Assembly (NCBI GenBank): GCA_031414595.1
Contig: JANNVX010000032.1
Coordinates: 1 to 64,000, forward strand
Length of the DNA: 64,000 bases
Origin: Deinococcales bacterium
GTDB lineage: Bacteria > Deinococcota > Deinococci > Deinococcales > JAAFIG01
Direction of reading: 5' to 3'
Made by a program: the position numbers and the translations under genes. Below the pieces are notes generated by a model. It did not search any database and was not told the DNA's origin. It saw nothing but the letters and a program-made list of their open reading frames with translations. This document shows positions 8,677-23,636 of this stretch, one piece after another (position 1 is the stretch's first letter; every line of letters begins with the position of its first letter).

Positions 8677-8699
8677 ACAAACAGATTACAATAGTTTTT

Positions 8700-9998
8700 A
8701 TGTTTGATTTGATTATTCGGGCTAAAAACATCCAGATTGGAATTGAGTCTGGTAAAATCGTCGGTCTCGAGGCTGAAATAACCAGCCCTAGCAAGTCTGA
8801 ACTTAATTTTCTCGAGCTTGATGCAGTTCCAGCCGTAATTGATACCCATGTCCATTTTAACGAACCCGGAAACGAAGATTGGGAGGGCATTCAAACTGGC
8901 TCGAGTGCCTTAGCGGTCGGTGGCGGAACGGTTTTTATTGACATGCCACTCAATTCGATTCCAGTCACCACAACCAAAGCAGCCCTAACTACCAAACTCG
9001 AGTGCTTAGCCCAAAAATCCATCACTGATTATGCAGTCTGGGGTGGTTTAACCCCCGATAGTTTGCCACATCTCGAGGCAATGGCAATGGCTGGTGTGAT
9101 TGGCTTTAAGGCATTTATGAGCGGCAGTGGATTGCCAGAATTTGAACGTTCTGACGAAGAAACGTTACTCGAGGGTATGCAAATTGCGGCAGCCTTGGGC
9201 TTACCTGTAGCGGTTCATGCCGAATCTGAGCGCATCACCAGTGCCTTGAGTAAAGCTGCCAAAGTGATGGGTAAAACAGGCATCCGAGATTACTTGGATT
9301 CACGTCCGATAGAAGCCGAACTCGAGGCGATCAAAAGTGCAATTGCAATTGCTGAACAGACCAATTGTGCGCTTCACATCGTCCATATCTCAAGTGCGGC
9401 GGGTGTAGAGCTTATAACCGAAGCCAAAGCCAGAGGTGTGAATGTCACCGCCGAAACATGCCCGCATTATTTGTGGTTTTCTGAATCCGACCTAGAACGC
9501 CTTGGGGCGGTGCTAAAATGTGCGCCTCCTGTTCGCAGGGCTGAAGAACTCGAGCAGCTTTGGGGCGTGTTTGAACAAATTGATATTCTTGGTTCTGACC
9601 ACTCGCCTGCCCCGCCGAGCATGAAAACTGATTTGGATTTTTTTAAGATTTGGGGCGGTATTTCCGGGGTGCAAAGTACCTTAGAGGTGATGATGACTGC
9701 TTCTCAGGCTCGAGGCATCCCACTGGCAGCCTTGCATCAAAAACTCAGTGCTAACCCTGCCAAGCGCTTTGGTTTACAAAACAAAGGGCAACTTGCAATC
9801 GGATTTGATGCCGACATTGCCTTGGTTCAGACAATACCGTACACCCTCGAGAAAACCGATTTGCACTACCGCCATGCACAAAGCCCGTACCTTGGAGCAA
9901 GTCTTTCGGCTCGAGTCAAGCGGACTTTTTTGCGTGGCAATACAATTTGGGACGGTCAGCAACTTCATAGAGTCCAAGTAAGTTTTTTGCGACCCTGA
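8700..9998 (+). CDS. allB: Allantoinase (amidohydrolase)
   Basis: DTHVHFNEPG, DMPLNSIP, GFKAF, ETCPHYL, SDHSP and WGGISG motifs; start moved to ATG 8700. Confidence 0.85.
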   Translation: MFDLIIRAKNIQIGIESGKIVGLEAEITSPSKSELNFLELDAVPAVIDTHVHFNEPGNEDWEGIQTGSSALAVGGGTVFIDMPLNSIPVTTTKAALTTKLECLAQKSITDYAVWGGLTPDSLPHLEAMAMAGVIGFKAFMSGSGLPEFERSDEETLLEGMQIAAALGLPVAVHAESERITSALSKAAKVMGKTGIRDYLDSRPIEAELEAIKSAIAIAEQTNCALHIVHISSAAGVELITEAKARGVNVTAETCPHYLWFSESDLERLGAVLKCAPPVRRAEELEQLWGVFEQIDILGSDHSPAPPSMKTDLDFFKIWGGISGVQSTLEVMMTASQARGIPLAALHQKLSANPAKRFGLQNKGQLAIGFDADIALVQTIPYTLEKTDLHYRHAQSPYLGASLSARVKRTFLRGNTIWDGQQLHRVQVSFLRP

Positions 9999-10036
9999 AC
10001 AATGTTTTTGTGGTCAAAACCGATTACAATTGACTT

Positions 10037-10579
10037 ATGCGATTTCTTTTTTTAATCCTAATGCTTTTCGGCTTCTCGAGTTTCACGCTGGCGCAGGATT
10101 TCTCGAGCAGCGCGGCATTGAACAGTCTAGCGGCTGTTTCGCAAACAATCTCAAGGCTTGACCCACCTGTTTTAATGGCTCGAGATTGGGTCTTTGGCGG
10201 TTTAGAAGCTGGTTTTGCTGGTCGCACCGTCTCAACGCGCTTACTGCTTTGGTCGTTGCCGTGGATGGGCGCAAGTATCCTTGGTTTAACCCTAACCACC
10301 GATGACAAAGCCAAGGGGTTTTGGAGCATGAGCGGCGCTTGGGGATTTATCAATAGTGCGATTGCAATGATTGGTTTTCTGACCCCAGAATCAGACCTCG
10401 AGAGCTTACGGAATTTACTGCTGATTAACGCTGGTGTAGATGTGCTGTACATCGCGGCGGGTGCGTACATGTTGTCTCGAGCCGAAGCCTATTGGCAGGG
10501 AGCAGGTTGGGGCGTGATTTTACAAGGTACTTTTTTATTGGTTTTTGATTTATGGCAGGGTTTGGCAATTCGGTTTTGA
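10037..10579 (+). CDS. Hypothetical membrane protein (DUF6992-like)
   Basis: Signal peptide plus hydrophobic helices; NAGVDVLYIAAG and QGTFLLVFD motifs. Confidence 0.6.
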   Translation: MRFLFLILMLFGFSSFTLAQDFSSSAALNSLAAVSQTISRLDPPVLMARDWVFGGLEAGFAGRTVSTRLLLWSLPWMGASILGLTLTTDDKAKGFWSMSGAWGFINSAIAMIGFLTPESDLESLRNLLLINAGVDVLYIAAGAYMLSRAEAYWQGAGWGVILQGTFLLVFDLWQGLAIRF

Positions 10580-10581
10580 CT

Positions 10582-10610
10582 CAAAGCCCATAGCCCAAAG
10601 CTCATAGCCC
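10582..10610. repeat. Short heptamer-type tandem repeat (AAAGCCCATAGCCC), inverse copy at 20565-20592
   Basis: aaagcccatagcccaaagctcatagccc versus gagctatgggctttgagctatgggcttt. Confidence 0.7.
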
Positions 10611-10612
10611 AA

Positions 10613-11044
10613 CTATGGAATCACATATATCCCATCGCTGCGAGCCTCGAGCTTAAAGGCTGGTAATGGCTTGGCGGCTGGACCTTGAATCACTGCACCT
10701 GTTTCTAAGTTAAACAAACTGCCGTGGCAAGGGCAACCAAGTTGATTATTGACGGGTGCGCTGACTCCACAGCCAACATGGGTGCAAACCGTAGAACGAG
10801 CAATTAAATGGATTTCGCCTTGGCTGATGCCAGCCGCTTGTGGTTTGGCAACCCTTGCAATAATGGCTGGATTGGTCTCGAGATTGAGGTTCTTAAAACT
10901 ACCAACACTGGGAAATTCGCTTAAAGTCGCTACTTTTATGCCCGCTTGGGCTAGACTCGCTCCGGGGTTTTCTCGGATTGGCATACAGCCAGTCGCACCA
11001 ATTGCTCCAATTGTAACTAGGGCTTCTCGTCTGGTGATTTTCAT
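10613..11044 (-). CDS. Tat-exported Rieske [2Fe-2S] lipoprotein
   Basis: TRREAL Tat motif, ATGC lipobox, CTHVGC and CPCHGS boxes, GPA..PL. Confidence 0.88.
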   Translation of the reverse strand: MKITRREALVTIGAIGATGCMPIRENPGASLAQAGIKVATLSEFPSVGSFKNLNLETNPAIIARVAKPQAAGISQGEIHLIARSTVCTHVGCGVSAPVNNQLGCPCHGSLFNLETGAVIQGPAAKPLPAFKLEARSDGIYVIP

Positions 11045-11261
11045 AATTCATTGTCGCACAGGCTTTCGTGAGTATTTTTTGCAACCAAGAGTCAATTGTC
11101 TCCTACCATTCAATTTTCTGTTGTCATCAAAGGCGTATGGGACAATTCTCTGGTTGTTGCACAGTGTTGTAATTCGTATGCTGTTGCGTAATCTGCTGAA
11201 CATAAGGCTGAGGTCGTCTACCTGACATAAGGTTGTTGGGGTTTCTCGAGGAGGAAGGCTG

Positions 11262-12713
11262 GTGGGTATGAGTATGCTCGAATCTGTGCGTGATCGTTTG
11301 TTTCCTGATACTCCAGACGGGTCGGCAAAGCTGTGGCTTACGTCGTCTGTGGTCTGGGGGGTTATTGGCATGACCTTTGGTGTGTTCATGGCAATTTTGT
11401 TTGTCTTTCCAGAATTCACCAAAGGTGTGCCGTGGTTGTCGTTTAGTCGGATTCGTCCGTCACACGTCAACACCGTGGTGATGTCTTGGGTTTCGATGGC
11501 AAGCATTGGCTCGATGTTTTATATGTTGCCGCGCTTATTAAAGACTCCACTGGTTTCTGAGCGTCTGGGTACGGCGGTCGGTTGGTCTTGGAACGCCTTT
11601 GCCATCTGTATTCCGCTAACACTCTTAAATGGACTATCGGAAGGGCGCGAGTGGGCGGAGCTTGTTTGGTGGATGGATTGGTGGATGTTGATTAACCTTG
11701 GCTTGGTCGGTTATTTAACCTTTGCGACTGTGGCAAGACGCACCGAACCACAATTGTACGTCTCGGTTTGGTATTGGATGGGTTCGATGGTTGGCATGAC
11801 CTTGGTCTGGATTGTTGGCAACCGAACTTTTGTACCACTAGACGGACTTAACGATGCGATTGCCAATTGGTTCTATGCCCACGATGTATTAGGATTATGG
11901 ATTACCACCATGGGCATTGGAATTATTTACTACCTGTTGCCAAAACTAACGGCTGGCAAGAATGGCGAACCGGGCAACCCTGTCTTTAGCCATAAAATGT
12001 CCTTGATTGGGTTCTGGGGAAATTTTGCCTTCTACACGGGTATTGGGGCGCATCACATTATTCAGTCGCCAGTTCCAGAATGGCTTAAAGCCTTTGCGAT
12101 TGCCTCGAGTGTTTTAATGAGCATTCCAGTCTACTCGGCAAGTGCCAATTTTTTCTTAAGCACCCAAGGGCGTTGGGAGAACTTGGCTTGGAATTTACCG
12201 CTTCGATTTGTAACCTTTGGCTGGATTATGTACGCGCTCTCGAGTTTTCAGGGCAGTTTACAAGCAGTGCGTTCAATCAACTGGTATCAGCACTTCACGG
12301 GAATTGTCAGCGCTCACGCCCATTTAGCCATGCTTGGTGGCTTTAGCGTGGTGTTGTTTGCTAGTATTTATTACTGTATTCCGCGTCTTTACAAAGTCGA
12401 GTGGTACTCTAAAAAACTCGTGGTGGTGCATTTTTGGACGTTTACGGTTTCGTTTGTAATGTTCTTTTTGGTCTGGACAACCATGGGCTTTGTACAAGCC
12501 ACCAGTTGGGTCATGGGGATTAACGTCCAACAAACCGTGCCATTTTTACAACCGTTTACCTTCACCCGCATGATTGCCGCGTTAGCGATGATTTTTTCGG
12601 TTTATATTTTTGCCTATAACGTGCTGCAAACTGTGCGGAGCGCTAAACGTCAAGAGGCTTTTTCCGGAGCCAGAATTCCTTCAGCAGTTGCGCCTGCTGC
12701 GGCGGATGATTAG
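11262..12713 (+). CDS. ccoN: cbb3-type (C-family) heme-copper oxidase subunit I
   Basis: RIRPSH, EGREWAEL, WFYAHD, FYTGIGAHH and HAH: all six His and the helix-VII Tyr; exact start uncertain (11262/11268/11274). Confidence 0.88.
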   Translation: MGMSMLESVRDRLFPDTPDGSAKLWLTSSVVWGVIGMTFGVFMAILFVFPEFTKGVPWLSFSRIRPSHVNTVVMSWVSMASIGSMFYMLPRLLKTPLVSERLGTAVGWSWNAFAICIPLTLLNGLSEGREWAELVWWMDWWMLINLGLVGYLTFATVARRTEPQLYVSVWYWMGSMVGMTLVWIVGNRTFVPLDGLNDAIANWFYAHDVLGLWITTMGIGIIYYLLPKLTAGKNGEPGNPVFSHKMSLIGFWGNFAFYTGIGAHHIIQSPVPEWLKAFAIASSVLMSIPVYSASANFFLSTQGRWENLAWNLPLRFVTFGWIMYALSSFQGSLQAVRSINWYQHFTGIVSAHAHLAMLGGFSVVLFASIYYCIPRLYKVEWYSKKLVVVHFWTFTVSFVMFFLVWTTMGFVQATSWVMGINVQQTVPFLQPFTFTRMIAALAMIFSVYIFAYNVLQTVRSAKRQEAFSGARIPSAVAPAAADD

Positions 12714-12721
12714 GAGTTTTT

Positions 12722-13645
12722 ATGCTGAATCCTAAGAATGCAATTATCGGGCTGATGTTTATGCTCCTTGTGACTGGTGTGACCAGTTTGGTGGTCGTCG
12801 TACCCGCCGCAACTTTTAATCCTGAGCCATCAGTTGGTTTACGCAATTACACCGAAGCCGAGTTGCGTGGGCGCGAAGTTTTTAAGCGCGAGAACTGCTA
12901 TGTTTGCCATAGTCAATTTGTGCGTTTTCAAGACGAAGGTGTTGGTCCAACTTCGCAAGCTGGCGACTTTGCCTACGACAATTCAAACTTGCTCGGCACG
13001 CTGCGAAATGGTCCGGATTTGACCTATGAAGGCGGCTTATACCCGGACGAATGGCACATTGGGCATCTAAAAGCGCCGCGTTCGTACTTACCGGGCAGCT
13101 ATATGCCAAGTTACAGTTACTTAGACTCTAAAGACATCAAAGACCTTGTGGCATTTATCCAAAGCCTTGGGACACGCAATACACGAGCTTGGGACACCAA
13201 AGATGTCAATGTCCCAGAAAAGTACCGCAATCTCGAGTCTCCACTTGGTCAGACGGCAGCAAATATCGGGGCTGGGCGTGGTATTTACAACCAGAATTGC
13301 TCGGCTTGTCACGGCTTTGAGGGTCGGGCAGATGTGCCTTTGGCAAAAATGTTCTATCCAAAACCAGCCGCCAATTTCCATTTGCCTCGTTATAAAGATT
13401 TTACCGACGGACACTGGTTTAATAAAGTCGCAAGGGGCGTACCGGGAACTCGGATGCCGCGCTGGGACCAAATTCTCAATTCTGAGCAAATGTGGTATGT
13501 CGTCACCTACCTAAAGTCTTTAGCAGCAGACCAAGACCTTGTGCCGAAAGCGGGACGGGAAAAGTATTACGACAAGTCAGTTTTGCAACCCGGAACAATC
13601 AAGAAAAAGTACGAAGGCGCACCTAAAGCGGGCGGTGGTCACTAA
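12722..13645 (+). CDS. ccoO: CcoO-like subunit II fused to a second cytochrome c domain
   Basis: CYVCHSQFVR, GTLRNGPDL and PGSYMPSY; second heme motif CSACH and GTRMPRW. Confidence 0.85.
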   Translation: MLNPKNAIIGLMFMLLVTGVTSLVVVVPAATFNPEPSVGLRNYTEAELRGREVFKRENCYVCHSQFVRFQDEGVGPTSQAGDFAYDNSNLLGTLRNGPDLTYEGGLYPDEWHIGHLKAPRSYLPGSYMPSYSYLDSKDIKDLVAFIQSLGTRNTRAWDTKDVNVPEKYRNLESPLGQTAANIGAGRGIYNQNCSACHGFEGRADVPLAKMFYPKPAANFHLPRYKDFTDGHWFNKVARGVPGTRMPRWDQILNSEQMWYVVTYLKSLAADQDLVPKAGREKYYDKSVLQPGTIKKKYEGAPKAGGGH

Positions 13646-13938
13646 TGAAACATTTGGCTCGAGCCTTGGTTCTTGCTTGTTTCTCGAGTTTGGCATTTGC
13701 CGACCATGTGCCGGGCGTTGGCTTAAATTACAGTGGAACTTGGGTGGTGTTGATTGCTGTTGGTGTGATTTTTTCGCTTTTGATTTTGTCTTTGTTGTGG
13801 GCAGTTTTAGATGGGCAATTTCAGAATTCTGAACGGGTTAAATTTGCAGTGGCAGAGGTTAATGAAACCGATTTTATTCCGAGTATTGAGCGTCCGCAAG
13901 GCAATCTGGGTATTCAACGTCCGCAAGGCAAGAGGTGA
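13645..13938 (+). CDS. CcoS/FixS-like cbb3 maturation membrane protein
   Basis: TM helix followed by LWAVLDGQFQN (CcoS-type WA..GQF.D); N-terminal signal-like extension. Confidence 0.6.
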   Translation: MKHLARALVLACFSSLAFADHVPGVGLNYSGTWVVLIAVGVIFSLLILSLLWAVLDGQFQNSERVKFAVAEVNETDFIPSIERPQGNLGIQRPQGKR

Positions 13939-13941
13939 GTT

Positions 13942-14100
13942 ATGGCAGAGCAGAATAAAGACAACCACGACGACAACCATACCCACGAAATTGCTGGTAT
14001 TCAAGTTGGCGAGAAAAACGTGCCAACCTCAGTGATTGCTGTGATTATTTTCATTGTCTTTTTCGCCTTAATTTCTTGGATTGCACCACAGGGGTTTTGA
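13942..14100 (+). CDS. Unannotated 52-aa membrane peptide resembling the CcoP N-terminal anchor
   Basis: MAEQNKDNHDDNHTHEIAGIQVGEKNVPTSVIAVIIFIVFFALISWIAPQGF*; GAGG RBS; TGATG overlap with the next gene. Confidence 0.7.
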   Translation: MAEQNKDNHDDNHTHEIAGIQVGEKNVPTSVIAVIIFIVFFALISWIAPQGF

Positions 14101-15104
14101 TGAAAAAAATCATAACACTCTTTCTAATCTCGAGTTTAGCCGCTTGTAGCGTACCGAGTAACGCCAATAATCCAGCCAAAGAAGCCGCCAAAAAAGGGGT
14201 TTTGTACATTCGTGAAGGCGAAAAACCACTTGAATTAAAAGTCGAAGAAGGCGCATATGACTGGAAGTACCCGAAGTACCCCGAAGATTACAAAGTTGAT
14301 TTGAGTAACCGCGACCAAAACAACCAAACTTATATGTCTGGGCGGGAAATCACTTACCGAGCCAAACCCGATGGTCAACATAAAATGGACACTGCCTTGG
14401 CAGAATTTGGTTCATATGCAGGTCCTTGGCTCGAGGGCGAAGAAGCCTTGCTCTTACCAGTAGCCAACCCCAATGTGGTACTGGGTGACGCTTTAATCAA
14501 GAGTTTGGGGGCAGAAATCAAGCCCGAAATGCTGCCGACACTCGAAGAAACCCCTTTTCAGGCATACTTAAAATTGCGTGAACTTGGTAAGGACACGGAA
14601 GGTCGTCACCGCACTGTAACCATCGAATTAACTGGTGTGACTAACCCTTCGAGTGGCAAGCCCGAAAATGCCGAGTACGATGTTCAACTTGATAAAGAGG
14701 CTTTATGGAGCATTGCTTACGCTTTGTACCGCAAAATTCAACCTGACTTTAAGACCAGAATTCCAACTCGAGAAGACCCGAAAAAACTACTCGATGGCGC
14801 ATTGATTTACGGCAATTGCAACATGTGTCACGGCTCGGATGGTTGGGGCTTGGGCAAGAGTGGTCATAAGTTGCAACCACACCCAGCCAATTTTCATGAG
14901 CCAAGGCGTTTGTTTAATCGTTCTGATGCCAAACTGCGTGAAGTCTTGAAGCACGGAATTTACGGAAGTGCCATGCCACCGTGGGGTGACATACTCTCTG
15001 AAAATGAAATTAACCATGTGGTGGCATATATTCGTTCTTTTTCGTACAGTCTCGAGCCACCAGTCTTGAATGTCAAACCACGTTTTAAGGGAGGTCAGCC
15101 ATGA
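14100..15104 (+). CDS. Monoheme cytochrome c lipoprotein
   Basis: MKKII...LAAC lipobox; CNMCH; GSAMPPW axial Met. Confidence 0.85.
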   Translation: MKKIITLFLISSLAACSVPSNANNPAKEAAKKGVLYIREGEKPLELKVEEGAYDWKYPKYPEDYKVDLSNRDQNNQTYMSGREITYRAKPDGQHKMDTALAEFGSYAGPWLEGEEALLLPVANPNVVLGDALIKSLGAEIKPEMLPTLEETPFQAYLKLRELGKDTEGRHRTVTIELTGVTNPSSGKPENAEYDVQLDKEALWSIAYALYRKIQPDFKTRIPTREDPKKLLDGALIYGNCNMCHGSDGWGLGKSGHKLQPHPANFHEPRRLFNRSDAKLREVLKHGIYGSAMPPWGDILSENEINHVVAYIRSFSYSLEPPVLNVKPRFKGGQP

Positions 15105-15129
15105 ACCTGACACTCAAGGGAGGTCAACC

Positions 15130-15783
15130 ATGATTGACCGCAGAAGTATCGTGAAAGGCATCACTATTTTGCCGCTTTTAGCTGTGGCTGGTGGGATTGG
15201 AACTGCCCTTTTATCGTTTCTTAAACCGACTTGGAAACCACTGGCTTTGCCTGTCACCGAAAAACCCTTAAATGAGGACAAAGTTGTTGGCACACTCGAG
15301 GAATTTGCTAAGGATTACGACTTTAAGGCGTTTGTATTCACGCAAATTACCGTCGAATACACGGCTCGAGGGCGGGCGGCTACCGATGTGCTTGGTTATG
15401 CGGTTCGCATCCCCAATAACAGTTTAGCCGCCGCCGATGTGGGTGTTGGACCCAGTGGCTTACGCCGAGGCTACGGCGAAACTGATTACAATGGTCAAAA
15501 GTACAGCATTGTGGTGGTCTCAAGAATTTGCGCTCATTTGGGTTGTATTTTTGAGTACCATCAACCTGCCGAAGTTTGTTCTGGCTTTAATTACTGTGGC
15601 GGCTCTACTCCAATGTTTTCTTGTCCGTGCCATTTATCGGTCTATGACCCAGCCCAACAGCAAGATGTGGCTGGGGTTGGTAAATTACCCGGCAAGGTTG
15701 TCTCTGGTCCTGCGCCCCGCACTCCATTTCCTTTTGATTTTGAAATTAAAGGCAATGAAATCATCGTCAAAAGCTACGGTTAA
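15130..15783 (+). CDS. Rieske iron-sulfur subunit of a cytochrome bc complex
   Basis: GGAGG RBS, DRRSIVK Tat motif, TM anchor, CAHLGC and CPCHLSVYD, SGPAPR. Confidence 0.9.
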   Translation: MIDRRSIVKGITILPLLAVAGGIGTALLSFLKPTWKPLALPVTEKPLNEDKVVGTLEEFAKDYDFKAFVFTQITVEYTARGRAATDVLGYAVRIPNNSLAAADVGVGPSGLRRGYGETDYNGQKYSIVVVSRICAHLGCIFEYHQPAEVCSGFNYCGGSTPMFSCPCHLSVYDPAQQQDVAGVGKLPGKVVSGPAPRTPFPFDFEIKGNEIIVKSYG

Positions 15784-15795
15784 GGAGGAATACTT

Positions 15796-17103
15796 ATGGC
15801 AGCCCCCGCAGTTCCCGCAAAAAAAGCTGTTCCAAATGTTGGGCAAAAAATCGCCCAATGGTGGACTAAAAGTGCGCGTAATTTAGATTTATTTGACGAA
15901 AACCAAACCGATAAAGTTTTAACCGACCCGTGGTACATGCTTGGTGGGATGGCGTTGTTGTTTTGGTACATCACCATTGTGACAGGCACAGTTCTGATGT
16001 TTTTTTATGTGCCGGACACCTATCAGGCATGGCGCAGTGTGCGTGGAATGTTTGAAGGTGAACAGGGTTTTATTGTTGCCCTGATTCGCAATATGCACAA
16101 ATACGGCGCAGATGCACTGATTATTGCCCTAACAATGCGAATTTACCGCATGTACTTTAGGGGTGAATTTAAGAATTACAATCAGCTTTCCTATATGCTG
16201 ACAATCATTGGCTTACTTTTAGCCATGTTTAGTGGTTTAACGGGTTACTTGCTGATTTGGAATCAACGCGCACTGTGGGCAACCAAGGTTTTTGCGACCT
16301 TCCCAACTTTTGTGGATGATTTTCACAATATCCCGACGATCAAAGTCTTCCTAGCTCCGCTTGCTTATGTTCTCGAGCATACCCTCTCGAGTCTTAAAAT
16401 TGGGGCTTTGACGGCTAATTTTATGCTGGCTGGTCAAAGTATCGGTCCAGCTACTTTGACCCGTTTTTACAGCGCCCATTTTATGCTTTCGATGCTGGCA
16501 ATTTTGGCAATTGAAGCCTACTTTGCCCGTAAGGGACGCGGTGGTAAAATTGGTGAAGCGGCAGCCGGTGGTGGGGCTGGGCGCTTTAAGCGGATTAATT
16601 TACCGTGGTTTGCAGTGGTTTTTTGTTTTGTAATTCTGGTGGTAGTTTCGATTTGGGTTCCAGTGGATACGGGCAGCCCCGCGAACTACAGCGTTACGCC
16701 AAATCCGATTTTGTCCGACTGGTACTTTTTGGGGTTGTACCAAATGATGAAGTGGTGGCAACCCGCCGTGGCAACCTTACAGACCGTTTTGCTTCCCTTG
16801 GTGGCTTTTATTGTCGTCTTTTTAGATTATAGCCCCGAACGCAATCCTTGGAAACGCCCGTTCTGGACAATGGTTGGAATTTACGGATTGGTCTCATGGT
16901 TGGCGTTTAGCATCCTGATTATTCTAAACATTGCCGACATTAAACGCGACCCACCTTATGTTTACTTGGTCAGCATGATTATGCTTGGGGCTGGCGCAAT
17001 TTGGCACTGGGTCTTTATGGCAGGCGAACGCAAAAAACGCTTAAAACTCGAGGCAGAAAAAGCCGCTAAAGCTGCTCTAGCCGCCCCACAAGCGGCTGAT
17101 TAA
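15796..17103 (+). CDS. Cytochrome b (long form) retaining only the heme bL ligands
   Basis: WYMLGG, IRNMH, TGYLL.WNQ, LTRFYSAH and ILSDWYFL (PEWY-like); the +14 His positions are Arg and Tyr. Confidence 0.9.
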   Translation: MAAPAVPAKKAVPNVGQKIAQWWTKSARNLDLFDENQTDKVLTDPWYMLGGMALLFWYITIVTGTVLMFFYVPDTYQAWRSVRGMFEGEQGFIVALIRNMHKYGADALIIALTMRIYRMYFRGEFKNYNQLSYMLTIIGLLLAMFSGLTGYLLIWNQRALWATKVFATFPTFVDDFHNIPTIKVFLAPLAYVLEHTLSSLKIGALTANFMLAGQSIGPATLTRFYSAHFMLSMLAILAIEAYFARKGRGGKIGEAAAGGGAGRFKRINLPWFAVVFCFVILVVVSIWVPVDTGSPANYSVTPNPILSDWYFLGLYQMMKWWQPAVATLQTVLLPLVAFIVVFLDYSPERNPWKRPFWTMVGIYGLVSWLAFSILIILNIADIKRDPPYVYLVSMIMLGAGAIWHWVFMAGERKKRLKLEAEKAAKAALAAPQAAD

Positions 17104-17120
17104 GCGAAAGGAAAGCAATC

Positions 17121-17423
17121 ATGAAAGGAAGCACTTGGCTATTTACCCTCGCCTCATTTGTTGGTGGCATCCTTGTCTTTTCAAGTGGCTACAACCAAGT
17201 GTTGCGCTACCTCGAGCAGCCGACTTGGACGGGCTTAGCGATGATTGCTTTTTGGTTGACTTTGCTGCTGTTTTTTGTGGTTACACTGGGGTTTATTATG
17301 TATGCCGTAGACCGCAAAGCTGGCAATGTACGGGTCAAAATCGCGTTATTTGAACGTTTACTGGGTTATTCTAAAGAGGCTGTTTTGCCAGAATCTCGAG
17401 AAAAAAATAAGGAGAATTCATGA
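17121..17423 (+). CDS. Small 2-TM membrane protein in the respiratory operon
   Basis: RBS, hydrophobic helices, ATGA overlap with the next gene. Confidence 0.75.
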   Translation: MKGSTWLFTLASFVGGILVFSSGYNQVLRYLEQPTWTGLAMIAFWLTLLLFFVVTLGFIMYAVDRKAGNVRVKIALFERLLGYSKEAVLPESREKNKENS

Positions 17424-17791
17424 AGACAATCATCGCCATACTGCTGGTTTTAGGGGCGCTCGGACTTGCGCCTTTGACCATTGGGGCGTTCGCTCACGCC
17501 AATCCAGATTTTGGAACAGTTGATAAAACCTTATCTTCCGAAAATCCATACATTGTTCGTGAGGATGGAGCGCCAAAAATTCCAGAGCTTGCGGTGAGCT
17601 TGGTTAAAATTATTCGAGATACCGAAGGGGCGATTTCTGGGGCGTTGCTGCCAAACCTAAAATCCTTCCCATTTGAACGTGGCTTTGCGTATATGGGCTT
17701 AACTGTACTGCTGACTGCGATTGCTTCGGCACTGCTTGCCGATACGCGCAGTCAAACCCTCGTTAAACCTGGCAAGAGGAGGCTGGCATAA
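17420..17791 (+). CDS. Small membrane-anchored protein in the respiratory operon
   Basis: AGGAG RBS, signal peptide plus C-terminal TM, coupled to both neighbours. Confidence 0.75.
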   Translation: MKTIIAILLVLGALGLAPLTIGAFAHANPDFGTVDKTLSSENPYIVREDGAPKIPELAVSLVKIIRDTEGAISGALLPNLKSFPFERGFAYMGLTVLLTAIASALLADTRSQTLVKPGKRRLA

Positions 17792-18978
17792 TGGCAGGTT
17801 ACAGCGCCGACCAAGCCCCAACTTCTCGGGACAAAGGTTTTGATGCAGGTTTAGATGGTATCCATAAAGGTGTTGTTGCCGTAGACAAAGCCATCAATAA
17901 AGTCATCCCCGAAGAGTTCAATCCGTTTTATTACTTGGGCGGCATCACCAATGTACTTTGGGTGCTGCTTGTGCCAACCGGCATTTTCTTGTGGTTTTAC
18001 TATAAACCCACCACCTCAGAAGCCTTCTCGAGTGTTGATTATTTAACCGTACAGGTCTTTTTTGGTGGTGTGATTCGCGGTATTCATCGTTATGCTGGCA
18101 ATGGCATGATTTTATTGGCGGTGCTGCACATGTTGCGTAATTTCTTCACCGACCGTTACCGAGGCTTTAGAGATATCCCTTGGGTTTCTGGAGTTATCCT
18201 CTTGTTTCTAACTGGTTTCATTGGCTTGACTGGTTATTTGTTGGTTTGGGATCAACGCGCCTTGGTCATTACCGAAGCCTTGGTACAGATTTTACGCAGT
18301 TTTGACTTGGTGGTTGCTGGATTTGGCACTTGGTTAGCCAGAGGACTCATCGGTGGTGACGAACCGAATAATTTAACCTTGGCTCGGATGCTGTTTTTGC
18401 ATGTTGGACCTGCAGTGATGGTGTTCTTTTTCTTGTGGGTGCATTATTTGCGTTTGCACCGCCCCAAAATCTGGCCTCCGGCTTTTGTAACGCTACTGAC
18501 GATTGGCGCAGTTTTATTGGTGGCTGGTTTAGCACCACTCGAGAAAACCTTGCCCGCCACACAACCGATTGTTGAAGGACAAGCTGCCATTGTCTATGAC
18601 ATTTTCTATTTGCTGCCTGTATTAGCGCTCTCGAGCATCAGCGCCCCTTGGATTTTGGCGATTCTACTGCTGCTTTTTGCGGTGATGTTTATTCTGCCTT
18701 GGATTCCAGCCAAAAAACACCGTTATGTCAATGTCGCAACCGTCACCCCAGAAAACTGTACCGGTTGTCAACTCTGTGCTATTGACTGCCCGTTTGACGC
18801 AATCGTGATGGTTCCTGGAGCAAATCCAAATCCGCGTTATACCGAGTTAGCCGTGGTCAATGATGACAAATGTGCTGAATGTGGTATTTGCGTTGGTGCT
18901 TGCCCATTCCATGCAATCAATCTCCCGCTCATGGATGAATACACTGTGCGCGATAAGGTGGTGGCGTTACTTAAATGA
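17791..18978 (+). CDS. Cytochrome b with four His ligands fused to a C-terminal 2[4Fe-4S] ferredoxin
   Basis: HRYAGNGMILLAVLH and HVGPAVMVFFFLWVH; CTGCQLCAIDCP and CAECGICVGACP. Confidence 0.9.
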   Translation: MAGYSADQAPTSRDKGFDAGLDGIHKGVVAVDKAINKVIPEEFNPFYYLGGITNVLWVLLVPTGIFLWFYYKPTTSEAFSSVDYLTVQVFFGGVIRGIHRYAGNGMILLAVLHMLRNFFTDRYRGFRDIPWVSGVILLFLTGFIGLTGYLLVWDQRALVITEALVQILRSFDLVVAGFGTWLARGLIGGDEPNNLTLARMLFLHVGPAVMVFFFLWVHYLRLHRPKIWPPAFVTLLTIGAVLLVAGLAPLEKTLPATQPIVEGQAAIVYDIFYLLPVLALSSISAPWILAILLLLFAVMFILPWIPAKKHRYVNVATVTPENCTGCQLCAIDCPFDAIVMVPGANPNPRYTELAVVNDDKCAECGICVGACPFHAINLPLMDEYTVRDKVVALLK

Positions 18979-19463
18979 CACAAGCAACTGAACATATCCA
19001 ACCCCAAGTTTTAGCCTTGAGTGGCAAACCCAAAATTTTTGGCTTTGTCTGCGAATGGAGCTTAGGACGCACCGATTACATCCATGAAGATGGCACGGTC
19101 AAAGGCATGGAGCATATCAAAACCCTTAAAATTCCTTGCTCGGGCTTTGTGAAAACCGAATGGGTCACGGTGGCATTTGAAAATGGCGCTCAAGGTGTGT
19201 TTGTGCTGGGTTGCCCACTCGGAGATTGCCATTTTAACGAAGGTAACTTCATTATTAACGGCAGACTCGAGCAGCACACAGGCAGAATGGTCAACCGTAA
19301 AATCATTGACGAAGCTGGGCGCGTTGCCGAGCTTTACCTTGGTGTGACTGGCAACAACGATTTCTTTACTCAACTCGAAGACTTCACCAAGTACATCAGC
19401 GACATGCCAGCCTTGGTAGTCGCTGCCAAAAAACCTCGGGCTGCGGCAGCCAAAAAGGAGTAA
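18975..19463 (+). CDS. MvhD/FlpD-like [2Fe-2S] protein
   Basis: GFVCEWS, IPCSG and GVFVLGCPLGDCHFNEGN, the MvhD four-Cys signature. Confidence 0.85.
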   Translation: MTQATEHIQPQVLALSGKPKIFGFVCEWSLGRTDYIHEDGTVKGMEHIKTLKIPCSGFVKTEWVTVAFENGAQGVFVLGCPLGDCHFNEGNFIINGRLEQHTGRMVNRKIIDEAGRVAELYLGVTGNNDFFTQLEDFTKYISDMPALVVAAKKPRAAAAKKE

Positions 19464-19467
19464 TCAG

Positions 19468-19671
19468 ATGGAAGAAACTGCTGTAAATTCTAAAATTCTC
19501 GAGATAAGCGGCGAATCTACCTTGGCTGTGCGACCTGAACTCGAGCAAGTTGGAACTACCGAAAAGGACTCTCGGGGGGTGGGCTATCTGATGAATTGGG
19601 TCAGTTTAATTTTACTTTTTGTGCTTTCAATGATTGCCATTGCTTGGTTTGGACCTTTTAGCGAAGTATAG
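19468..19671 (+). CDS. Small C-terminally anchored membrane protein, last gene of the operon
   Basis: AAGGAG RBS, single C-terminal TM helix. Confidence 0.65.
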   Translation: MEETAVNSKILEISGESTLAVRPELEQVGTTEKDSRGVGYLMNWVSLILLFVLSMIAIAWFGPFSEV

Positions 19672-19716
19672 CCGAGCCTCATCTTAAGTCTGGTTCTTAA
19701 TCATCCAAAAAGCGTT

Positions 19717-19752
19717 AAACTAGAGGCAACCATCAGTGGTTGCCTCTAGTTT
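19717..19752. terminator. Perfect hairpin, probable operon terminator
   Basis: AAACTAGAGGCAACCA-tcag-TGGTTGCCTCTAGTTT. Confidence 0.75.
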
Positions 19753-20562
19753 ATGGCAAGAATCCCTTTAACAACACCTGAGCCAGCCGAACCTTCCAAT
19801 GCGATGGATAAGTTGCGTATGAGCCAAATAGAAATTATCTCGATCACCCCATTTATTCGGCTCGAGAAGGGCAATTGGCAAGGCAAGCGTGTGCTGGTCA
19901 AACGCTTAAAAACATCCATGATGAACAACCCTGATGTGCTTGAACGCTTCGAGCGCGAAGCCGATATTCTCGAGCGGCTTGACCACCCGAATATCCCAGC
20001 CTTGATTCACCGCGAATCTGGGGTACTGATGCGCCAATACGTTGAAGGCAACACGCTTTATCATTACCTCAACACCGCCACCATAGACACCGCCTCAACT
20101 TTGCATATTGCAAGGGGTTTATTGTCGGCATTGGTGCATTCGCACGTCCGAGAAATCCTACATTTGGATGTCAAACCCGCCAATGTGCTACTCAGCGCTG
20201 ACCGCCGCGTCCATCTGATTGATTTTGGATGTGCCAAAGACCTGACTTTGGGCAGTATTACCCACCATGAAGCCCGTCTTGGCACACCGCATTACATGGC
20301 ACCCGAGCAATTCAAAGGCATCCGCGATGAACAACGCTCCGACATTTACAGCGTCGGGGCAGTGATGTACGAATGCCTGATGGGACAACCACCACAACGT
20401 GACCCATTTGCATGGTTATCTGGACGTGGTGCATTACCCAAGCAAATGCCTAAGAATAATCAGTTGGCTGATATCATCTGGAAAGCCATTCAACGCAACC
20501 CAGACCACCGATACGACGAAGCCCTTGATATGCTCGAGGCGTTAGAAGCGATTGAAGTTTAG
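19753..20562 (+). CDS. Hanks-type Ser/Thr protein kinase
   Basis: VLVK, HLDVKPAN, DFG, GTPHYMAPE and SDIYS; start may be downstream. Confidence 0.88.
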   Translation: MARIPLTTPEPAEPSNAMDKLRMSQIEIISITPFIRLEKGNWQGKRVLVKRLKTSMMNNPDVLERFEREADILERLDHPNIPALIHRESGVLMRQYVEGNTLYHYLNTATIDTASTLHIARGLLSALVHSHVREILHLDVKPANVLLSADRRVHLIDFGCAKDLTLGSITHHEARLGTPHYMAPEQFKGIRDEQRSDIYSVGAVMYECLMGQPPQRDPFAWLSGRGALPKQMPKNNQLADIIWKAIQRNPDHRYDEALDMLEALEAIEV

Positions 20563-20641
20563 GAGAGCTATGGGCTTTGAGCTATGGGCTTTGAGGGTTT
20601 ACTAGCCGATTGTCTCGAGAAACCGATTCTTAGAGGAAAAA

Positions 20642-21556
20642 ATGAAACGATTATTGACTTTCTTGGGTGTGTTTCTATTTGGCTTGGCAATTTCTCAAAG
20701 TGGCTCTCCTCTGCCCGCCAGTGCAACCCTCATCTCGAGCAAAATCATCAACGGAATTACCGAACAAGACCTGTGGTATAAAAGCGACAATTTACGAATT
20801 CGCGGGCGGTTGTTTTTGCCAAGTGGCACGGCTCGAGTGGCTGGGGTTGTCTACAATCACGGCGGGGTTACTGGTTTATCTAACCTTGCGGCAACACGCT
20901 GCCGCGAACTGGCACAGGCTGGCTTGGCGGTCTTTGCCTCGAGCTACCGAGGTGAGGATGGCTCGGATGGCAAAGTAGAAGTCGCCAAAGGCGAAATAGA
21001 CGATGTTCTGGCTGGCTATAACTGGTTTAAGACCCACCCTCGAGTGGATGCAAAGCGCATTGCCCAATTTGGCACAAGCCACGGGGCATTGATCGGGCTT
21101 TTTAGCAGCGCAAGGGACTCGAGTTTTCGCAGTTTGGTCTTTGCTTACGGCGTAGCCGATATTGTCGCATGGTACGAGCATTTGGTACGCACCAAGCAAC
21201 TGACAAACGACCAATTGACCAAGGACACTTACGGTAACGGTCCCGCAGACCGCCCCGAAAGTTTTGCGGTTCGGATGGGTTTGAGCGCCGTCCCAAAAAT
21301 CCCTGATGCCATGCCTGTGCTGATTATTCAGGGTGGAAAAGATGTGATTGTGCCGCTTGAACAAGCCAAAGTCTTACACAGCAGCCTCAAGAAAAACGGC
21401 AAACAAAGCCAATTGAACGTTTATCCAAATAGCGAACATGGTTTTGTGATTACCCAAGAAGCGGCTGCCAAAAAAAGTAAGGTGTCTGGTCTCGAGGCTA
21501 GTCTTGCATGGTCAGACATAAAAAAATTCTTACTCGAGACAACCAAAATCAGGTAA
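20642..21556 (+). CDS. Secreted alpha/beta hydrolase (S9 peptidase-like)
   Basis: Signal peptide, HGG, GTSHG nucleophile elbow, GGKD, HGF. Confidence 0.85.
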   Translation: MKRLLTFLGVFLFGLAISQSGSPLPASATLISSKIINGITEQDLWYKSDNLRIRGRLFLPSGTARVAGVVYNHGGVTGLSNLAATRCRELAQAGLAVFASSYRGEDGSDGKVEVAKGEIDDVLAGYNWFKTHPRVDAKRIAQFGTSHGALIGLFSSARDSSFRSLVFAYGVADIVAWYEHLVRTKQLTNDQLTKDTYGNGPADRPESFAVRMGLSAVPKIPDAMPVLIIQGGKDVIVPLEQAKVLHSSLKKNGKQSQLNVYPNSEHGFVITQEAAAKKSKVSGLEASLAWSDIKKFLLETTKIR

Positions 21557-21565
21557 ACTCGAGCC

Positions 21566-22072
21566 ATGTTATTTGCTTTGGTTGCCCTCATTATTGTGCA
21601 GCGCTTACTTGAACTGGGTCATGCTAAGCGCAACTTGGCTTGGGTAATGGCAAATGGTGGCAAAGAATACGCAGCCGAACATTACCCTTTTATGGTTGCC
21701 TTGCACTCGAGTTGGATTGTGGCACTGCTGCTTGAGGGATGGCTACGCGGCGCGGCTCTTTCGAGTTTATGGTGGTTGTGGCTTGGGCTTTTTTTAGTCG
21801 CTCAGGTCTTACGCTACATCGTCATCTCGAGCCTAGGTAAACTCTGGAATACCCGAATTATTATTGTGCCAAATGCAAAATTGGTACGCTCTGGGTTATA
21901 CAGCTTTGTTAAACACCCCAATTATATGATTGTTGCCCTCGAGTTATTGGTCACACCACTGATTTTTGATGCTTGGATTACAGCGATTGTTTTTAGTGTC
22001 CTGAATGCTGTTTTATTGCTAGGTTTTCGGATTCCTGCCGAAGAACGCGCCCTCGAGACATTAAAGGGTTAA
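21566..22072 (+). CDS. Isoprenylcysteine carboxyl methyltransferase family (BpsB/SrsB-like)
   Basis: QRL.EL..A.RN, LG..WNTRII, HPNY, RIPAEE. Confidence 0.85.
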   Translation: MLFALVALIIVQRLLELGHAKRNLAWVMANGGKEYAAEHYPFMVALHSSWIVALLLEGWLRGAALSSLWWLWLGLFLVAQVLRYIVISSLGKLWNTRIIIVPNAKLVRSGLYSFVKHPNYMIVALELLVTPLIFDAWITAIVFSVLNAVLLLGFRIPAEERALETLKG

Positions 22073-22091
22073 TGTAGCTTATAATGCCAGT

Positions 22092-23636
22092 ATGACGATT
22101 CAATTGACCAACCCTGTACCCGAAGTAGCAATGCCACTTTTTTCGCAAGCTGCCTTAGAATTTGTGACTCAACTCGAGCAGAAATTTGCAGCGCGGCGCT
22201 TGGAGTTACTGACCGCTCGAGCCGAACGCGCCAAGCGCCTAAAAAACGGCGAATTACCGCATTTTTTGCCTGAAACAAGCAATATCAGGGAATCTGAATG
22301 GACGGTTGCACCATTGCCACAAGACCTACAAGACCGCCGTACCGAAATAACCGGACCCGTAGACCGAAAAATGGTGATTAACGCCCTCAATTCTGGGGCA
22401 AAGGTTTTTATGGCAGATTTTGAAGATGCCAATAGTCCAACATGGTCAAACACCACGCTAGGACAAGTGAATTTGCTTGATGCCAATAAACGCATTATTT
22501 CACTCGAGCAGGGCGAAAAAACCTATGTGTTAAACCAAACCGTTGCGACTCTCAAAGTTCGTCCGCGTGGTTGGCATCTCGAGGAACGCCATGCGGTCTT
22601 GGATGGCAAGGCTGTGTCGGCTTCGCTGTTTGATTTTGGGATTTACTTTTTTAACAATGTTGATGTGCTGCTTGGACGTGGTTCAGCCCCTTATTTTTAC
22701 CTGCCTAAACTTGAATCACATCTCGAGGCAAGATTATGGAACGATGTTTTTGTCTTTGCCCAAGAATACCTTGGTGTCCCACAAGGCACGATTCGCGCCA
22801 CAGTTTTAATCGAAACAATCCTCGCCTCGTTTGAAATGCACGAGATTTTGTATGAACTGCGCCACCACTCGAGTGGCTTAAATTGCGGACGTTGGGATTA
22901 TATTTTTAGTTTTATTAAAAAACTCGGTCACGACCCTAGATTTGTTCTGCCAGACCGTGCCAAAGTGACGATGGCAACCCAGATGATGCGCTCCTACTCA
23001 AAACTGGCGATACAAACCTGCCACAAGCGCAACGCCCCAGCCATCGGCGGGATGAGTGCTTTTATTCCCGTTAAAAACGATGAGGCTGCCAATGCAAAGG
23101 CATTTGAACAAGTTCGGCTTGATAAAGAACGTGAAGCTGGCGATGGTCATGACGGCACTTGGGTGGCGCACCCCGGGCTTGTCCCTGTGGCACTCGAGGT
23201 CTTTAACCGACTGATGCCGACCCCCAATCAAATCGGCAAAATTCCAGAAGGGGCTGTTTTTGAATCAGACCTTTTAATTGTTCCGACCGATGGTGTGACC
23301 CGAACTGGACTCGAGCTAAATGTTTCTGTGGCACTCCAATACTTAGAAGCATGGTTACGCGGCAGTGGGGCAGTGCCAATCAATAATTTAATGGAAGATG
23401 CGGCTACCGCCGAAATCTCGAGGGCGCAACTCTGGCAATGGGTGCATCACAAAGTTGAACTCGAGGACAGCACAATTGTCACCCGCGACTTGGTACTACA
23501 AACCATTCAAAAGTACCTTGGACAGCTAAAAGCAGAAGGCAAACGCTTTGAAGAAGCCGCTAAACTCTTAATCAACACCACCAAAGAACCATTTGCCGAA
23601 TTCTTAACCACCTCGGCGTACCAAATTCTTGAGTAA
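22092..23636 (+). CDS. aceB: Malate synthase A
   Basis: EITGP.DRKM.INALNSGA, RPRGWH, LNCGRWDYIFS, LMEDAATAEISR. Confidence 0.95.
   Translation: MTIQLTNPVPEVAMPLFSQAALEFVTQLEQKFAARRLELLTARAERAKRLKNGELPHFLPETSNIRESEWTVAPLPQDLQDRRTEITGPVDRKMVINALNSGAKVFMADFEDANSPTWSNTTLGQVNLLDANKRIISLEQGEKTYVLNQTVATLKVRPRGWHLEERHAVLDGKAVSASLFDFGIYFFNNVDVLLGRGSAPYFYLPKLESHLEARLWNDVFVFAQEYLGVPQGTIRATVLIETILASFEMHEILYELRHHSSGLNCGRWDYIFSFIKKLGHDPRFVLPDRAKVTMATQMMRSYSKLAIQTCHKRNAPAIGGMSAFIPVKNDEAANAKAFEQVRLDKEREAGDGHDGTWVAHPGLVPVALEVFNRLMPTPNQIGKIPEGAVFESDLLIVPTDGVTRTGLELNVSVALQYLEAWLRGSGAVPINNLMEDAATAEISRAQLWQWVHHKVELEDSTIVTRDLVLQTIQKYLGQLKAEGKRFEEAAKLLINTTKEPFAEFLTTSAYQILE

Follow-up and report, generated by a model that had tools for sequence, protein, structure and literature searches.

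Cytochrome bc complexes are called homodimeric in a 2021 review, in which electron transfer between the two monomers in vivo and the purpose of the dimer are listed as debated (PMC7908018); the 300,000 characters of that review covered here contain no mention of a heterodimer, a ferredoxin domain, 4Fe-4S or the Melainabacteria. Here we analyze a gene cluster in which two different cytochrome b genes stand side by side. The cluster lies on the + strand of a 64,000-nucleotide stretch (the window) of contig JANNVX010000032.1, from a Deinococcales bacterium, and joins the genes of a C-family (cbb3-type) haem-copper oxidase to those of a Rieske protein, two cytochromes b (hereafter b#1 and b#2), and an iron-sulfur protein resembling MvhD. 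Our preferred interpretation, to which we give roughly even chances, is that these genes encode, besides the oxidase, a variant Rieske/cytochrome b complex with a heterodimeric b#1/b#2 core, in which the second electron of quinol oxidation would pass outward to a cytoplasmic acceptor.

Parts of this arrangement are found in several described systems; our comparisons draw on parts of the papers that describe them. In the PDWF-FeS clade of cytochromes b, the cytochrome is extended by 4Fe-4S and MvhD domains, and the gene cluster has no Rieske gene (Kao and Hunte 2014, PMC4122944). Compared by its published description rather than by the sequences of its Magnetospirillum and Turneriella members, this clade has the same domain set, but in the window MvhD is a separate gene, and it is joined to a Rieske protein and to the mono-haem b#1. 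In Melainabacteria, the genes 'petB, petB, petC' beside a type C oxidase were described as a complex III/IV combination or fusion, with Obscuribacter cited too (Matheus Carnevali et al. 2019, PMC6349859). This is probably the same gene cluster, and its order matches that of the Melainabacteria and Obscuribacterales loci in our set; in that paper the genes were treated as b6f subunits, and the ferredoxin domain, MvhD and the missing haem ligands go unmentioned in the parts of that paper covered here. For the anammox Rieske/b complexes with an NAD(P) oxidoreductase, it was proposed that the low-potential electron from the quinol-oxidizing (Qo) site reaches a cytoplasmic acceptor instead of the Qn site (PMC12954380). 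Those complexes share with the present one a cytoplasmic redox module on a Rieske/b complex and a high-potential Rieske protein, which for the present one is a prediction. Their module, however, is a flavoprotein accompanied by multihaem cytochromes, whereas the window encodes a ferredoxin domain and MvhD with no flavoprotein, a putatively heterodimeric b core with one haem lost, and a high-potential branch that ends at an O2 reductase. Finally, Rhodobacter capsulatus and Pseudomonas aeruginosa form bc1-cbb3 supercomplexes (PMC7876108, PMC10556555), in which a Rieske/b complex likewise feeds a cbb3-type oxidase, and the window CcoN aligns with chains 6xkw_n and 8smr_E of such supercomplex structures; these nevertheless use an ordinary homodimeric bc1 from a separate operon.

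With bc1 and b6f in general, the encoded complex shares a Rieske protein with both cluster boxes, the cytochrome b fold, a Qo motif (the SDWY of b#1) and a c-type cytochrome partner, and its best solved matches are cytochrome b6 and cytochrome b. It differs in that the two cytochromes b are the products of different genes, that b#1 has no ligands for the n-side haem (bH) and so lacks the full set of four histidines, that b#2 ends in a ferredoxin domain and is joined by an MvhD-like subunit, that the cysteine of haem cn is absent, and that a class I cytochrome c lipoprotein takes the place of a c1 or f homologue. A literature search, in which subscription papers were not covered, returned no description of the combined architecture of Rieske protein, two cytochromes b and MvhD. 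An earlier note on this DNA, made from the sequence alone, had put the operon forward as its best candidate for an undescribed system; this stands for the combined architecture within the literature searched, but both the petB-petB-petC/oxidase cluster and the b-FeS-MvhD fusions had been noted before. That is, the system is visible in earlier annotations, and its architecture was not analysed there. Complex III, cytochrome b, Rieske, bc1 and MvhD are not mentioned in a paper on Sysuimicrobiota (PMC11604079), and a paper that discusses ferredoxin input to b6f (PMC5600118) mentions neither Melainabacteria nor 4Fe-4S.

Related loci were collected by a combined pattern and tblastn scan of one genome per species, which gave 428 tblastn-confirmed stretches; the best 80 were kept, a set biased to the closer ones, and the window proteins were searched against these 80 by tblastn. 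In high-GC loci the reading frames were chosen by Pfam matches, as greedy picking produced spurious antisense open reading frames (ORFs). The MvhD gene is directly 3′ of b#2 in all 75 loci with at least 600 nt of downstream sequence, and b#1 and the Rieske gene are upstream of b#2 in 59 of the 61 loci whose upstream sequence extends for 3.6 kb or more; in the two exceptions, L023 and L029, a b#1-type gene is found on another contig of the same genome. A gene neighborhood search had been suggested in the earlier note, and the order Rieske-b#1-b#2/ferredoxin-MvhD indeed recurs in at least four phyla. The operon arrangement therefore reflects more than chance. In full, the conserved order is cytochrome c, Rieske, b#1, one or more small membrane proteins, b#2-ferredoxin, MvhD. 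The carriers, as labelled, are Deinococcales, Vampirovibrionales/Melainabacteria/Obscuribacterales, Armatimonadota, Sysuimicrobiota, one metagenome-assembled genome (MAG) of Holophagaceae and one of Aquificaceae; the closest loci are those of Deinococcales MAGs, with b#2 identities of 75-99%. Among the carriers is a culturable species, Vampirovibrio chlorellavorus, whose locus is L027.

The association with the oxidase is looser. Of 51 loci that include 8 kb or more of upstream sequence, 41 have ccoN there; a distant ccoN-like gene (22-26% identity) is downstream in 4 of 68, and no oxidase is found within the flanks in 7 of the 49 loci for which both flanks are long. The fixed link to a cbb3-type oxidase that had been supposed at the outset thus gives way to a lineage-specific one. 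Because the oxidase is attached only in some lineages, we conclude that the conserved entity is the Rieske/b#1/b#2-ferredoxin/MvhD module rather than an oxidase supercomplex.

The loci that depart from the common layout have features of their own. In L019 and L067, both without an oxidase, the neighboring genes encode cytochrome c maturation proteins, a cytochrome c and a polyprenyl synthase, with a sulfocyanin-like cupredoxin in L019. In L017, L021, L044 and L081, labelled Sysuimicrobiota/Armatimonadota, the distant haem-copper oxidase lies downstream of MvhD rather than upstream, at about 11.6-14.2 kb of each locus, together with CcoO-like and cytochrome c genes. The two Vampirovibrionales genomes that carry b#2-ferredoxin and MvhD apart from Rieske/b#1 (L023:9977-12105 and L029:3787-5391) have in common an ORF of 241-250 amino acids, of no family, just before this pair, which in L023 comes right after rpoB/rpoC.

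The first of the two cytochromes, b#1 (15796-17103, + strand; 435 amino acids), is full length by Pfam, with both the N- and C-terminal domains. When it is aligned to solved structures, an arginine in helix B takes the position of the second histidine of cytochrome b6, i.e., that of the n-side haem ligand. To extend this to the family, 78 ORFs were picked from the loci; 12 were dropped because they had fewer than 350 amino acids or turned out to be the b#2 ORF, leaving 66. The ligands of the p-side haem (bL) are kept, with His101 in 65 of these 66 sequences, the other row being gapped, and His228 in 66 of 66. The n-side positions are different in both helices: position 115 in helix B (Arg115 in the window) is Arg in 63, Lys in 2 and a gap in 1, and position 242 in helix D (Tyr242) is Tyr in 54, Phe in 10, Leu in 1 and Arg in 1. 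The stretch LSDWYFL around the Qo motif is invariant (66/66). As a control, the b#1 profile was run against 1.84 billion representatives and, from the best 150, the 130 of at least 330 amino acids were aligned. All four histidines are present in 111 of these, Arg or Lys occupies the helix-B position in 18, and there is one other outlier; the 18 are all among the top scorers, and they carry SDWY or PDWY, with ADWY in one. By these alignments, b#1 is a cytochrome b that keeps the bL ligands only, both bH ligands being lost throughout the family. This loss was absent from the earlier note and is added by the present analysis. Since the survey in PMC4122944 dropped every cytochrome b without any one of the four histidines, the b#1 family would be invisible to surveys of this kind.

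Three further features of b#1 were recorded. An acidic motif, D-x-F-D-E, at residues 31-35, before helix A and on the cytoplasmic side, is invariant in 21 of 21 aligned sequences and is a candidate docking site for the iron-sulfur arm or another partner. In Melainabacteria/Vampirovibrionia loci b#1 is longer, at about 460-690 amino acids (e.g., L027:7826-9328 and L056:7312-9213) and about 590-690 in the Obscuribacterales type; these long forms are extended at the C-terminus by additional hydrophobic segments, and by a soluble insert in the longest, and the extension stands in for one small membrane protein of the window operon. Among NCBIfam models, ExtP, the b-type cytochrome of a selenite/tellurite reduction operon, scores highest for b#1 and also for b#2, but its 103 and 142 bits, respectively, are far under the cut-off of 290.

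The second cytochrome, b#2 (17791-18978, + strand; 395 amino acids), matches Pfam Cytochrome_B (1.9e-28) and, in its C-terminal part, the Fer4 families of a 2x[4Fe-4S] ferredoxin domain. His99, His113, His204 and His218 and all eight ferredoxin cysteines are invariant in alignments of 16 and 22 sequences. The ef-loop motif is degenerate (VYDIF), with a nearly invariant Asp in the loop, and in a WDQRA stretch on the p side the W-D pair is invariant. An AlphaFold2 model (mean predicted local distance difference test, pLDDT, of 68.9) shows six membrane helices, A-F, namely the four-helix di-haem core plus E and F, and then the ferredoxin domain. Hydropathy alone gives seven helices, a miscount that arises as the cd and ef helices score hydrophobic, and the helix count was therefore taken from the AlphaFold2 secondary structure. 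With six membrane helices, the ferredoxin domain is predicted to lie on the cytoplasmic side, the same as the N-terminus. Among solved structures b#2 is closest to cytochrome b6 (E 5e-33 to 1q90_B), with a Tyr at the position of the haem cn Cys, which is absent. Five residues beyond the bH ligand, where bc1 has a residue of the quinone-reducing (Qi) site, b#2 is not conserved, with H, T or R.

To relate the two proteins, a FastTree phylogeny was made from the haem (N-terminal) domain only, with a midpoint root for drawing only. In this tree b#1 forms one clade (support 99) beside ordinary cytochromes b, and b#2 groups with natural cytochrome b-Fer4-FlpD fusion proteins (support 100). By this separate placement b#1 and b#2 are not recent duplicates; nor are they the halves of one split cytochrome b, as a complete four-helix bundle is present in each. 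No further cytochrome b gene was found in the genome, which is 94% complete, and a working quinol oxidase must therefore use these two. Because the losses are complementary (no n-side haem in b#1, a degenerate Qo motif in b#2) and no other cytochrome b is found in the genome, the two-protein b core is most likely a heterodimer.

An alternative that would dispense with the heterodimer is that the genes encode two enzymes. One, of Rieske/b#1, would send both quinol electrons to the high-potential chain, with no Q cycle, and the other, of b#2-ferredoxin/MvhD, would act independently and tie the quinone pool to a cytoplasmic redox partner by a redox loop. This would fit the origin of b#1 and b#2 from different cytochrome b lineages, the distance between b#2-MvhD and b#1 in two genomes, and, from PMC4122944, both the b-FeS-MvhD fusions without a nearby Rieske gene and a Pyrobaculum cytochrome b that is likewise without a bH ligand. 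In a b#1 homodimer, however, haem bL would be a dead end, the adjacency holds across phyla, in 59 of 61 loci, and neither protein has another cytochrome b to pair with in the window genome; in the tree, the two proteins also look alike by eye in their order of branching, although simple co-inheritance would give the same. On balance we think it quite unlikely that these are two enzymes, and we return to the heterodimer below, after describing the proteins that would take electrons from it.

The MvhD-like protein (18975-19463, + strand; 162 amino acids) matches Pfam FlpD at 2.6e-20 (73.1 bits, cut-off 22.3), and a profile of 23 family sequences matches the solved MvhD 5odc_D at E 1.9e-29. MvhD in Mvh-Hdr complexes is a relay that passes electrons on. 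With that protein the window homologue shares the fold family and four kept Cys positions (Cys26, Cys55, Cys80 and Cys85, all invariant), which we take to be those that bind the cluster; it differs in the N-terminal CxxC, which is without its second Cys (VCERS or VCEWS, as against CCNWC). It is also the only FlpD found in the genome, and no [NiFe] hydrogenase was found there, at 94% completeness. The first impression that MvhD occurs here with no hydrogenase in the window thus holds genome-wide for the [NiFe] type. Among 19 window ORFs (8640-23636) scanned with Pfam there is no hydrogenase or Hdr family, HdrA itself having had no search of its own.

We then assessed whether the MvhD-like protein and b#2 are predicted to interact. 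Their co-fold gave an interaction prediction score from aligned errors (ipSAE) of 0.78 (0.79, 0.78 and 0.78 in the individual runs), and the best of three controls gave 0.00. That mark is reached by 116 of 157 solved complexes and by 2 of 215 mismatched pairs, a calibration that is rough only, as our own alignments were used. At least 82% of the contacts are shared between runs, and the partner pLDDT is at least 76. In the predicted interface the second [4Fe-4S] motif of b#2 (362-370) is placed against the MvhD Cys loops (53-63 and 81-90), and the n-side loops of the b core (41-48, 120-122 and 222-226) also take part. The MvhD-like protein is thus predicted to dock on the b#2 ferredoxin domain, at the cytoplasmic face. 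Natural single-chain proteins of 693-732 amino acids carry cytochrome b, Fer4 and FlpD domains in that order, and these fusions are independent support for these parts working together. Electron exchange with cytoplasmic Fe-S carriers, as proposed in the earlier note, is supported in part, namely by this predicted docking.

The iron-sulfur arm might instead be non-catalytic, serving in redox or O2 sensing or as an assembly aid, while the complex runs an ordinary or reduced Q cycle. In favor of this, the operon has no gene for a catalytic partner, and a Ser/Thr kinase gene follows it in Deinococcales relatives. But the eight ferredoxin and four MvhD cysteines are invariant across phyla, the predicted interface sets the cluster loops opposite one another, the loss of bH from b#1 would be left without explanation, and among the loci searched a kinase match right after the operon is confined to those of Deinococcales and L035. 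A non-catalytic arm therefore seems to us highly improbable.

The energetics of the proposed reaction depend on the Rieske protein (15070-15783, + strand, with a true start possibly at the ATG at 15130), which has a twin-arginine signal (DRRSIVKG). Its Pfam match (E 0.0063) is below the Pfam cut-off, and its NCBIfam score is likewise under the cut-off; both cluster boxes, CAHLGC and CPCH (in CPCHLSVY) in the window, are nonetheless kept in all 64 homologues, of which 61 have the signature S-Y and 3 have S-F. An S-Y signature has been read as a potential above 260 mV and S-F as about 260 mV, in a summary of ten Brink et al. 2013, and D-type Qo motifs are otherwise paired with low-potential Rieske proteins (PMC4122944). 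The S-Y signature, a sequence criterion, thus predicts a high potential. The genome also has two genes of the MqnA/MqnD family, of the futalosine route to menaquinone. With a high-potential Rieske protein and menaquinone, the quinol-to-Rieske drop would be large, and the second electron would therefore have a very low potential; the same energetic reasoning was applied to the anammox Rieske/b complexes with an NAD(P) oxidoreductase (PMC12954380).

In the mechanism we propose, menaquinol would be oxidized at the Qo site of b#1, which has the SDWY motif. The first electron would pass from the high-potential Rieske protein to the lipoprotein cytochrome c, then to CcoO-c, CcoN and O2. The second would reduce haem bL of b#1 and, because b#1 has no n-side haem, would have to cross to haem bL of b#2. 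From there it would go to haem bH of b#2, to the two [4Fe-4S] clusters of b#2 and to the [2Fe-2S] cluster of the MvhD-like subunit, and it would leave MvhD for a cytoplasmic acceptor whose gene lies outside the operon. A cytoplasmic Fe-S arm would thus replace the Qi site that an ordinary Q cycle uses, or compete with it. Of this scheme, the gene set and the cofactor-ligand patterns are observed, and the cytoplasmic side of the ferredoxin domain and the b#2-MvhD contact come from models; we infer the heterodimer, the haem transfer from b#1 to b#2, the outward direction and the acceptor.

A stronger version of this scheme is quinol-based electron bifurcation in an aerobe. Here the pull of the high-potential Rieske protein and cbb3 oxidase, with an obligatory bL-bL hop, would yield an Fe-S electron near the potential of ferredoxin, for use in ferredoxin reactions or for re-entry through complex I. 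We regard this version as rather improbable. If it were true, re-entry of the electron to the quinone pool through a complex I without NuoEFG, such as the one encoded elsewhere in this genome, would make an extended Q cycle with more protons per electron.

Several observations weigh against an outward path through a b#1/b#2 heterodimer. b#2-MvhD is separate from Rieske/b#1 in L023 and L029, and these split loci, together with the Rieske-less b-FeS-MvhD fusions described in the parts of PMC4122944 covered here, mean that the two halves could be separate enzymes. A search for b#1-b#2 fusions among longer proteins, which was a weak one, found none, with 2 weak hits in 7,999 scored. In the single-chain fold the b#2 ferredoxin domain is poorly modelled, with a pLDDT below 50 at 310-336 and 360-381. 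The p side of b#2 may still bind quinone, to judge from the near-invariant ef-loop Asp and the W-D pair, and conservation near its bH is ambiguous as to a Qi site. Moreover, if this is the sole complex III, sending half of the respiratory electrons to the cytoplasm needs a high-flux sink, and by our own estimate the membrane potential may leave the cytoplasmic electron too weak for ferredoxin.

The need for such a sink would fall away if electrons flowed in the other direction. In that case a cytoplasmic reductant, i.e., ferredoxin or a partner enzyme, would deliver electrons through MvhD and the [4Fe-4S] clusters to bH of b#2 for quinone reduction on the n side, where the quinone would receive one cytoplasmic electron and a second one that comes from the Qo site. 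For cytochrome b6f in cyclic electron flow, an input from ferredoxin has been proposed, of which the present complex would be a hard-wired form. Such an input agrees with the likeness of b#2 to cytochrome b6, its closest solved match, with the frequency of the module in Melainabacteria, the sisters of photosynthetic cyanobacteria, and with the predicted contacts between MvhD and the n-side loops of b#2. The role of MvhD as a relay in Mvh-Hdr complexes would also suit an input, the window protein being a homologue. For b6f, input of ferredoxin electrons at the n side is considered in PMC5600118. On the other side, b#2 has the Tyr in place of the haem cn Cys, its presumed Qi position is variable, and a working Qi site in b#2 would leave the universal loss of bH from b#1 without a clear reason; in addition, the high-potential Rieske signature and menaquinone suit a complex that makes a very low-potential electron. 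We therefore consider input from the cytoplasm unlikely, and keep the outward path from b#1 through b#2 to MvhD as our preferred reading.

The rest of the respiratory inventory was examined in the same genome. The window ccoN is the only COX1 match and so the only haem-copper oxidase found, and cytochrome bd was not found in the 94% that is covered. Within the phylum, the FlpD gene is present in 17 of 18 genomes of the organism's own family, in 0 of 125, 0 of 23 and 0 of 68 in three others, and in 2 of 128 in another; as these are related genomes, the counts are not independent. A complex I with NuoF is encoded on contig C98. A second complex I-like operon, nuoABCDHIJKLMN (11 subunits, no NuoEFG), lies on G000:C109 (locus L091:7972-19920) and has an unusually long NuoI of 351 amino acids. 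Orthologues of its NuoD are present in 15 of 18 genomes of family f1, 21 of 23 of f3 and 12 of 128 of f5, the last tally taking in the unpublished genome G326. A specific association of the NuoEFG-less complex I with the module was considered and rejected, because this NuoD type also occurs in families without the FlpD gene (in f3, 21 of 23 against 0 of 23). In nine f3 genomes from two genera (G148, G153, G154, G156, G161, G164, G165, G167 and G168), the frame around the NuoD match contains one in-frame TGA, which may be upstream of the true start.

The oxidase genes open the operon. CcoN (11262-12713, + strand; 483 amino acids) matches Pfam COX1 at E 4.1e-68 (230.7 bits, cut-off 34.8) and aligns nearly end to end with the solved CcoN chains 9g6b_A (E 4e-61) and 3mk7_A (E 5e-58). 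The HH, HxH and Tyr motifs, which we take to hold the active-site ligands, align with those of the solved chains. Against NCBIfam ccoN the score is 244.8 bits, below the equivalog cut-off of 583, so that the window CcoN is a divergent C-family member. CcoO (12722-13645, + strand; 307 amino acids) matches Pfam FixO at E 7.8e-35 (120.8 bits, cut-off 29.6) and NCBIfam ccoO at 116.6 bits, under the cut-off of 200.65. It carries a CcoP-like mono-haem cytochrome c domain fused at the C-terminus (Pfam cytochrome c, 2e-20; Cytochrome_CBB3, 1.7e-16), with two CxxCH motifs, CYVCH and CSACH, in the protein as a whole. A separate di-haem CcoP is absent from the operon, the single cytochrome c domain on CcoO being in its place. 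The genes thus encode a C-family (cbb3-type) haem-copper oxidase with recognizable CcoN and CcoO and without a di-haem CcoP. The mono-haem class I cytochrome c lipoprotein (14100-15104, + strand; 334 amino acids) has the lipobox LAAC and the motif CNMCH and matches Pfam Cytochrome_CBB3 at 1.5e-10; it is a probable c1/f stand-in or a shuttle to the oxidase. Judged by eye, a cytochrome c gene is found just 5′ of the Rieske gene in related loci, and that of L019 is di-haem.

All 12 ORFs of the tightly coupled set described at the outset are present on the + strand (11262-19671) and are closely packed, with gaps of -35 to +18 nt and an overlap of 1 or 4 nt at four junctions. Five of the products are short membrane proteins with no Pfam family above the cut-off. 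The first (13645-13938, + strand; 97 amino acids) had been described as CcoS-like. The window protein itself supports this weakly, with a Pfam FixS match at E 0.013, below the cut-off, but ORFs at the same position in the distant loci L027, L056 and L076 match FixS at 5e-7 to 7e-9. The second (13942-14100, + strand) is a single-pass peptide of 52 amino acids with one hydrophobic segment; tblastn finds relatives in Deinococcales loci and, weakly, in L035 and L076, and ORFs of 51-58 amino acids that resemble it occupy the same position in L027, L056 and L076. Between b#1 and b#2 are a membrane protein of 100 amino acids (17121-17423, + strand, by hydropathy) and a protein of 123 amino acids with hydrophobic segments at both termini (17420-17791, + strand). 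By tblastn, relatives of the former occupy the corresponding position in distant loci, e.g., L012, L016, L056, L067 and L080, whereas the latter has them in Deinococcales loci only. The last gene encodes a single-pass membrane protein of 67 amino acids (19468-19671, + strand, by hydropathy) with tblastn relatives in Deinococcales loci; short ORFs with a similar hydrophobic C-terminal half come after MvhD in L016 and L076.

A perfect hairpin with a 17-bp stem (19716-19753) follows the last gene. The operon had been said to end in this hairpin; the hairpin is real, but its reading as a terminator is not upheld, because the + strand has no T-run, the one present being on the - strand, and because the stem runs up to the ATG with which the next gene starts. 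Promoter-like and terminator-like sites in the region are not in excess over shuffled sequence (12 against 12.7 and 16 against 12.9, respectively). This next gene (19753-20562), which starts where the hairpin stem ends, encodes a Ser/Thr protein kinase. Every Deinococcales relative whose sequence reaches far enough has it after the operon, as does L035 (Obscuribacterales, 30% identity), and it may be co-transcribed with the operon or regulatory. On the upstream side, an ORF of 158 amino acids with two hydrophobic segments (10749-11225) stops 36 nt before ccoN and has a 51% identical counterpart at the same place in L004; a DUF6992 protein is encoded upstream of it (10037-10579).

For the organism, the module is the sole complex III, and the oxidase of the operon the sole haem-copper oxidase, found in the genome. 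A complex in which one half lacks the n-side haem could work only by crossing from bL to bL, and this bears on the question of the dimer that is listed as debated in PMC7908018. If the outward path is true, this would be a second lineage, independent of anammox, in which the low-potential Qo electron leaves the membrane, here in connection with O2 reduction. The module genes are found in many Melainabacteria, in Armatimonadota/Sysuimicrobiota loci and in one Deinococcales family; given this spread and the role of the module, the proton yields assumed for the groups that carry it may be wrong, and the finding also has a bearing on the origin of aerobic respiration next to the cyanobacteria.

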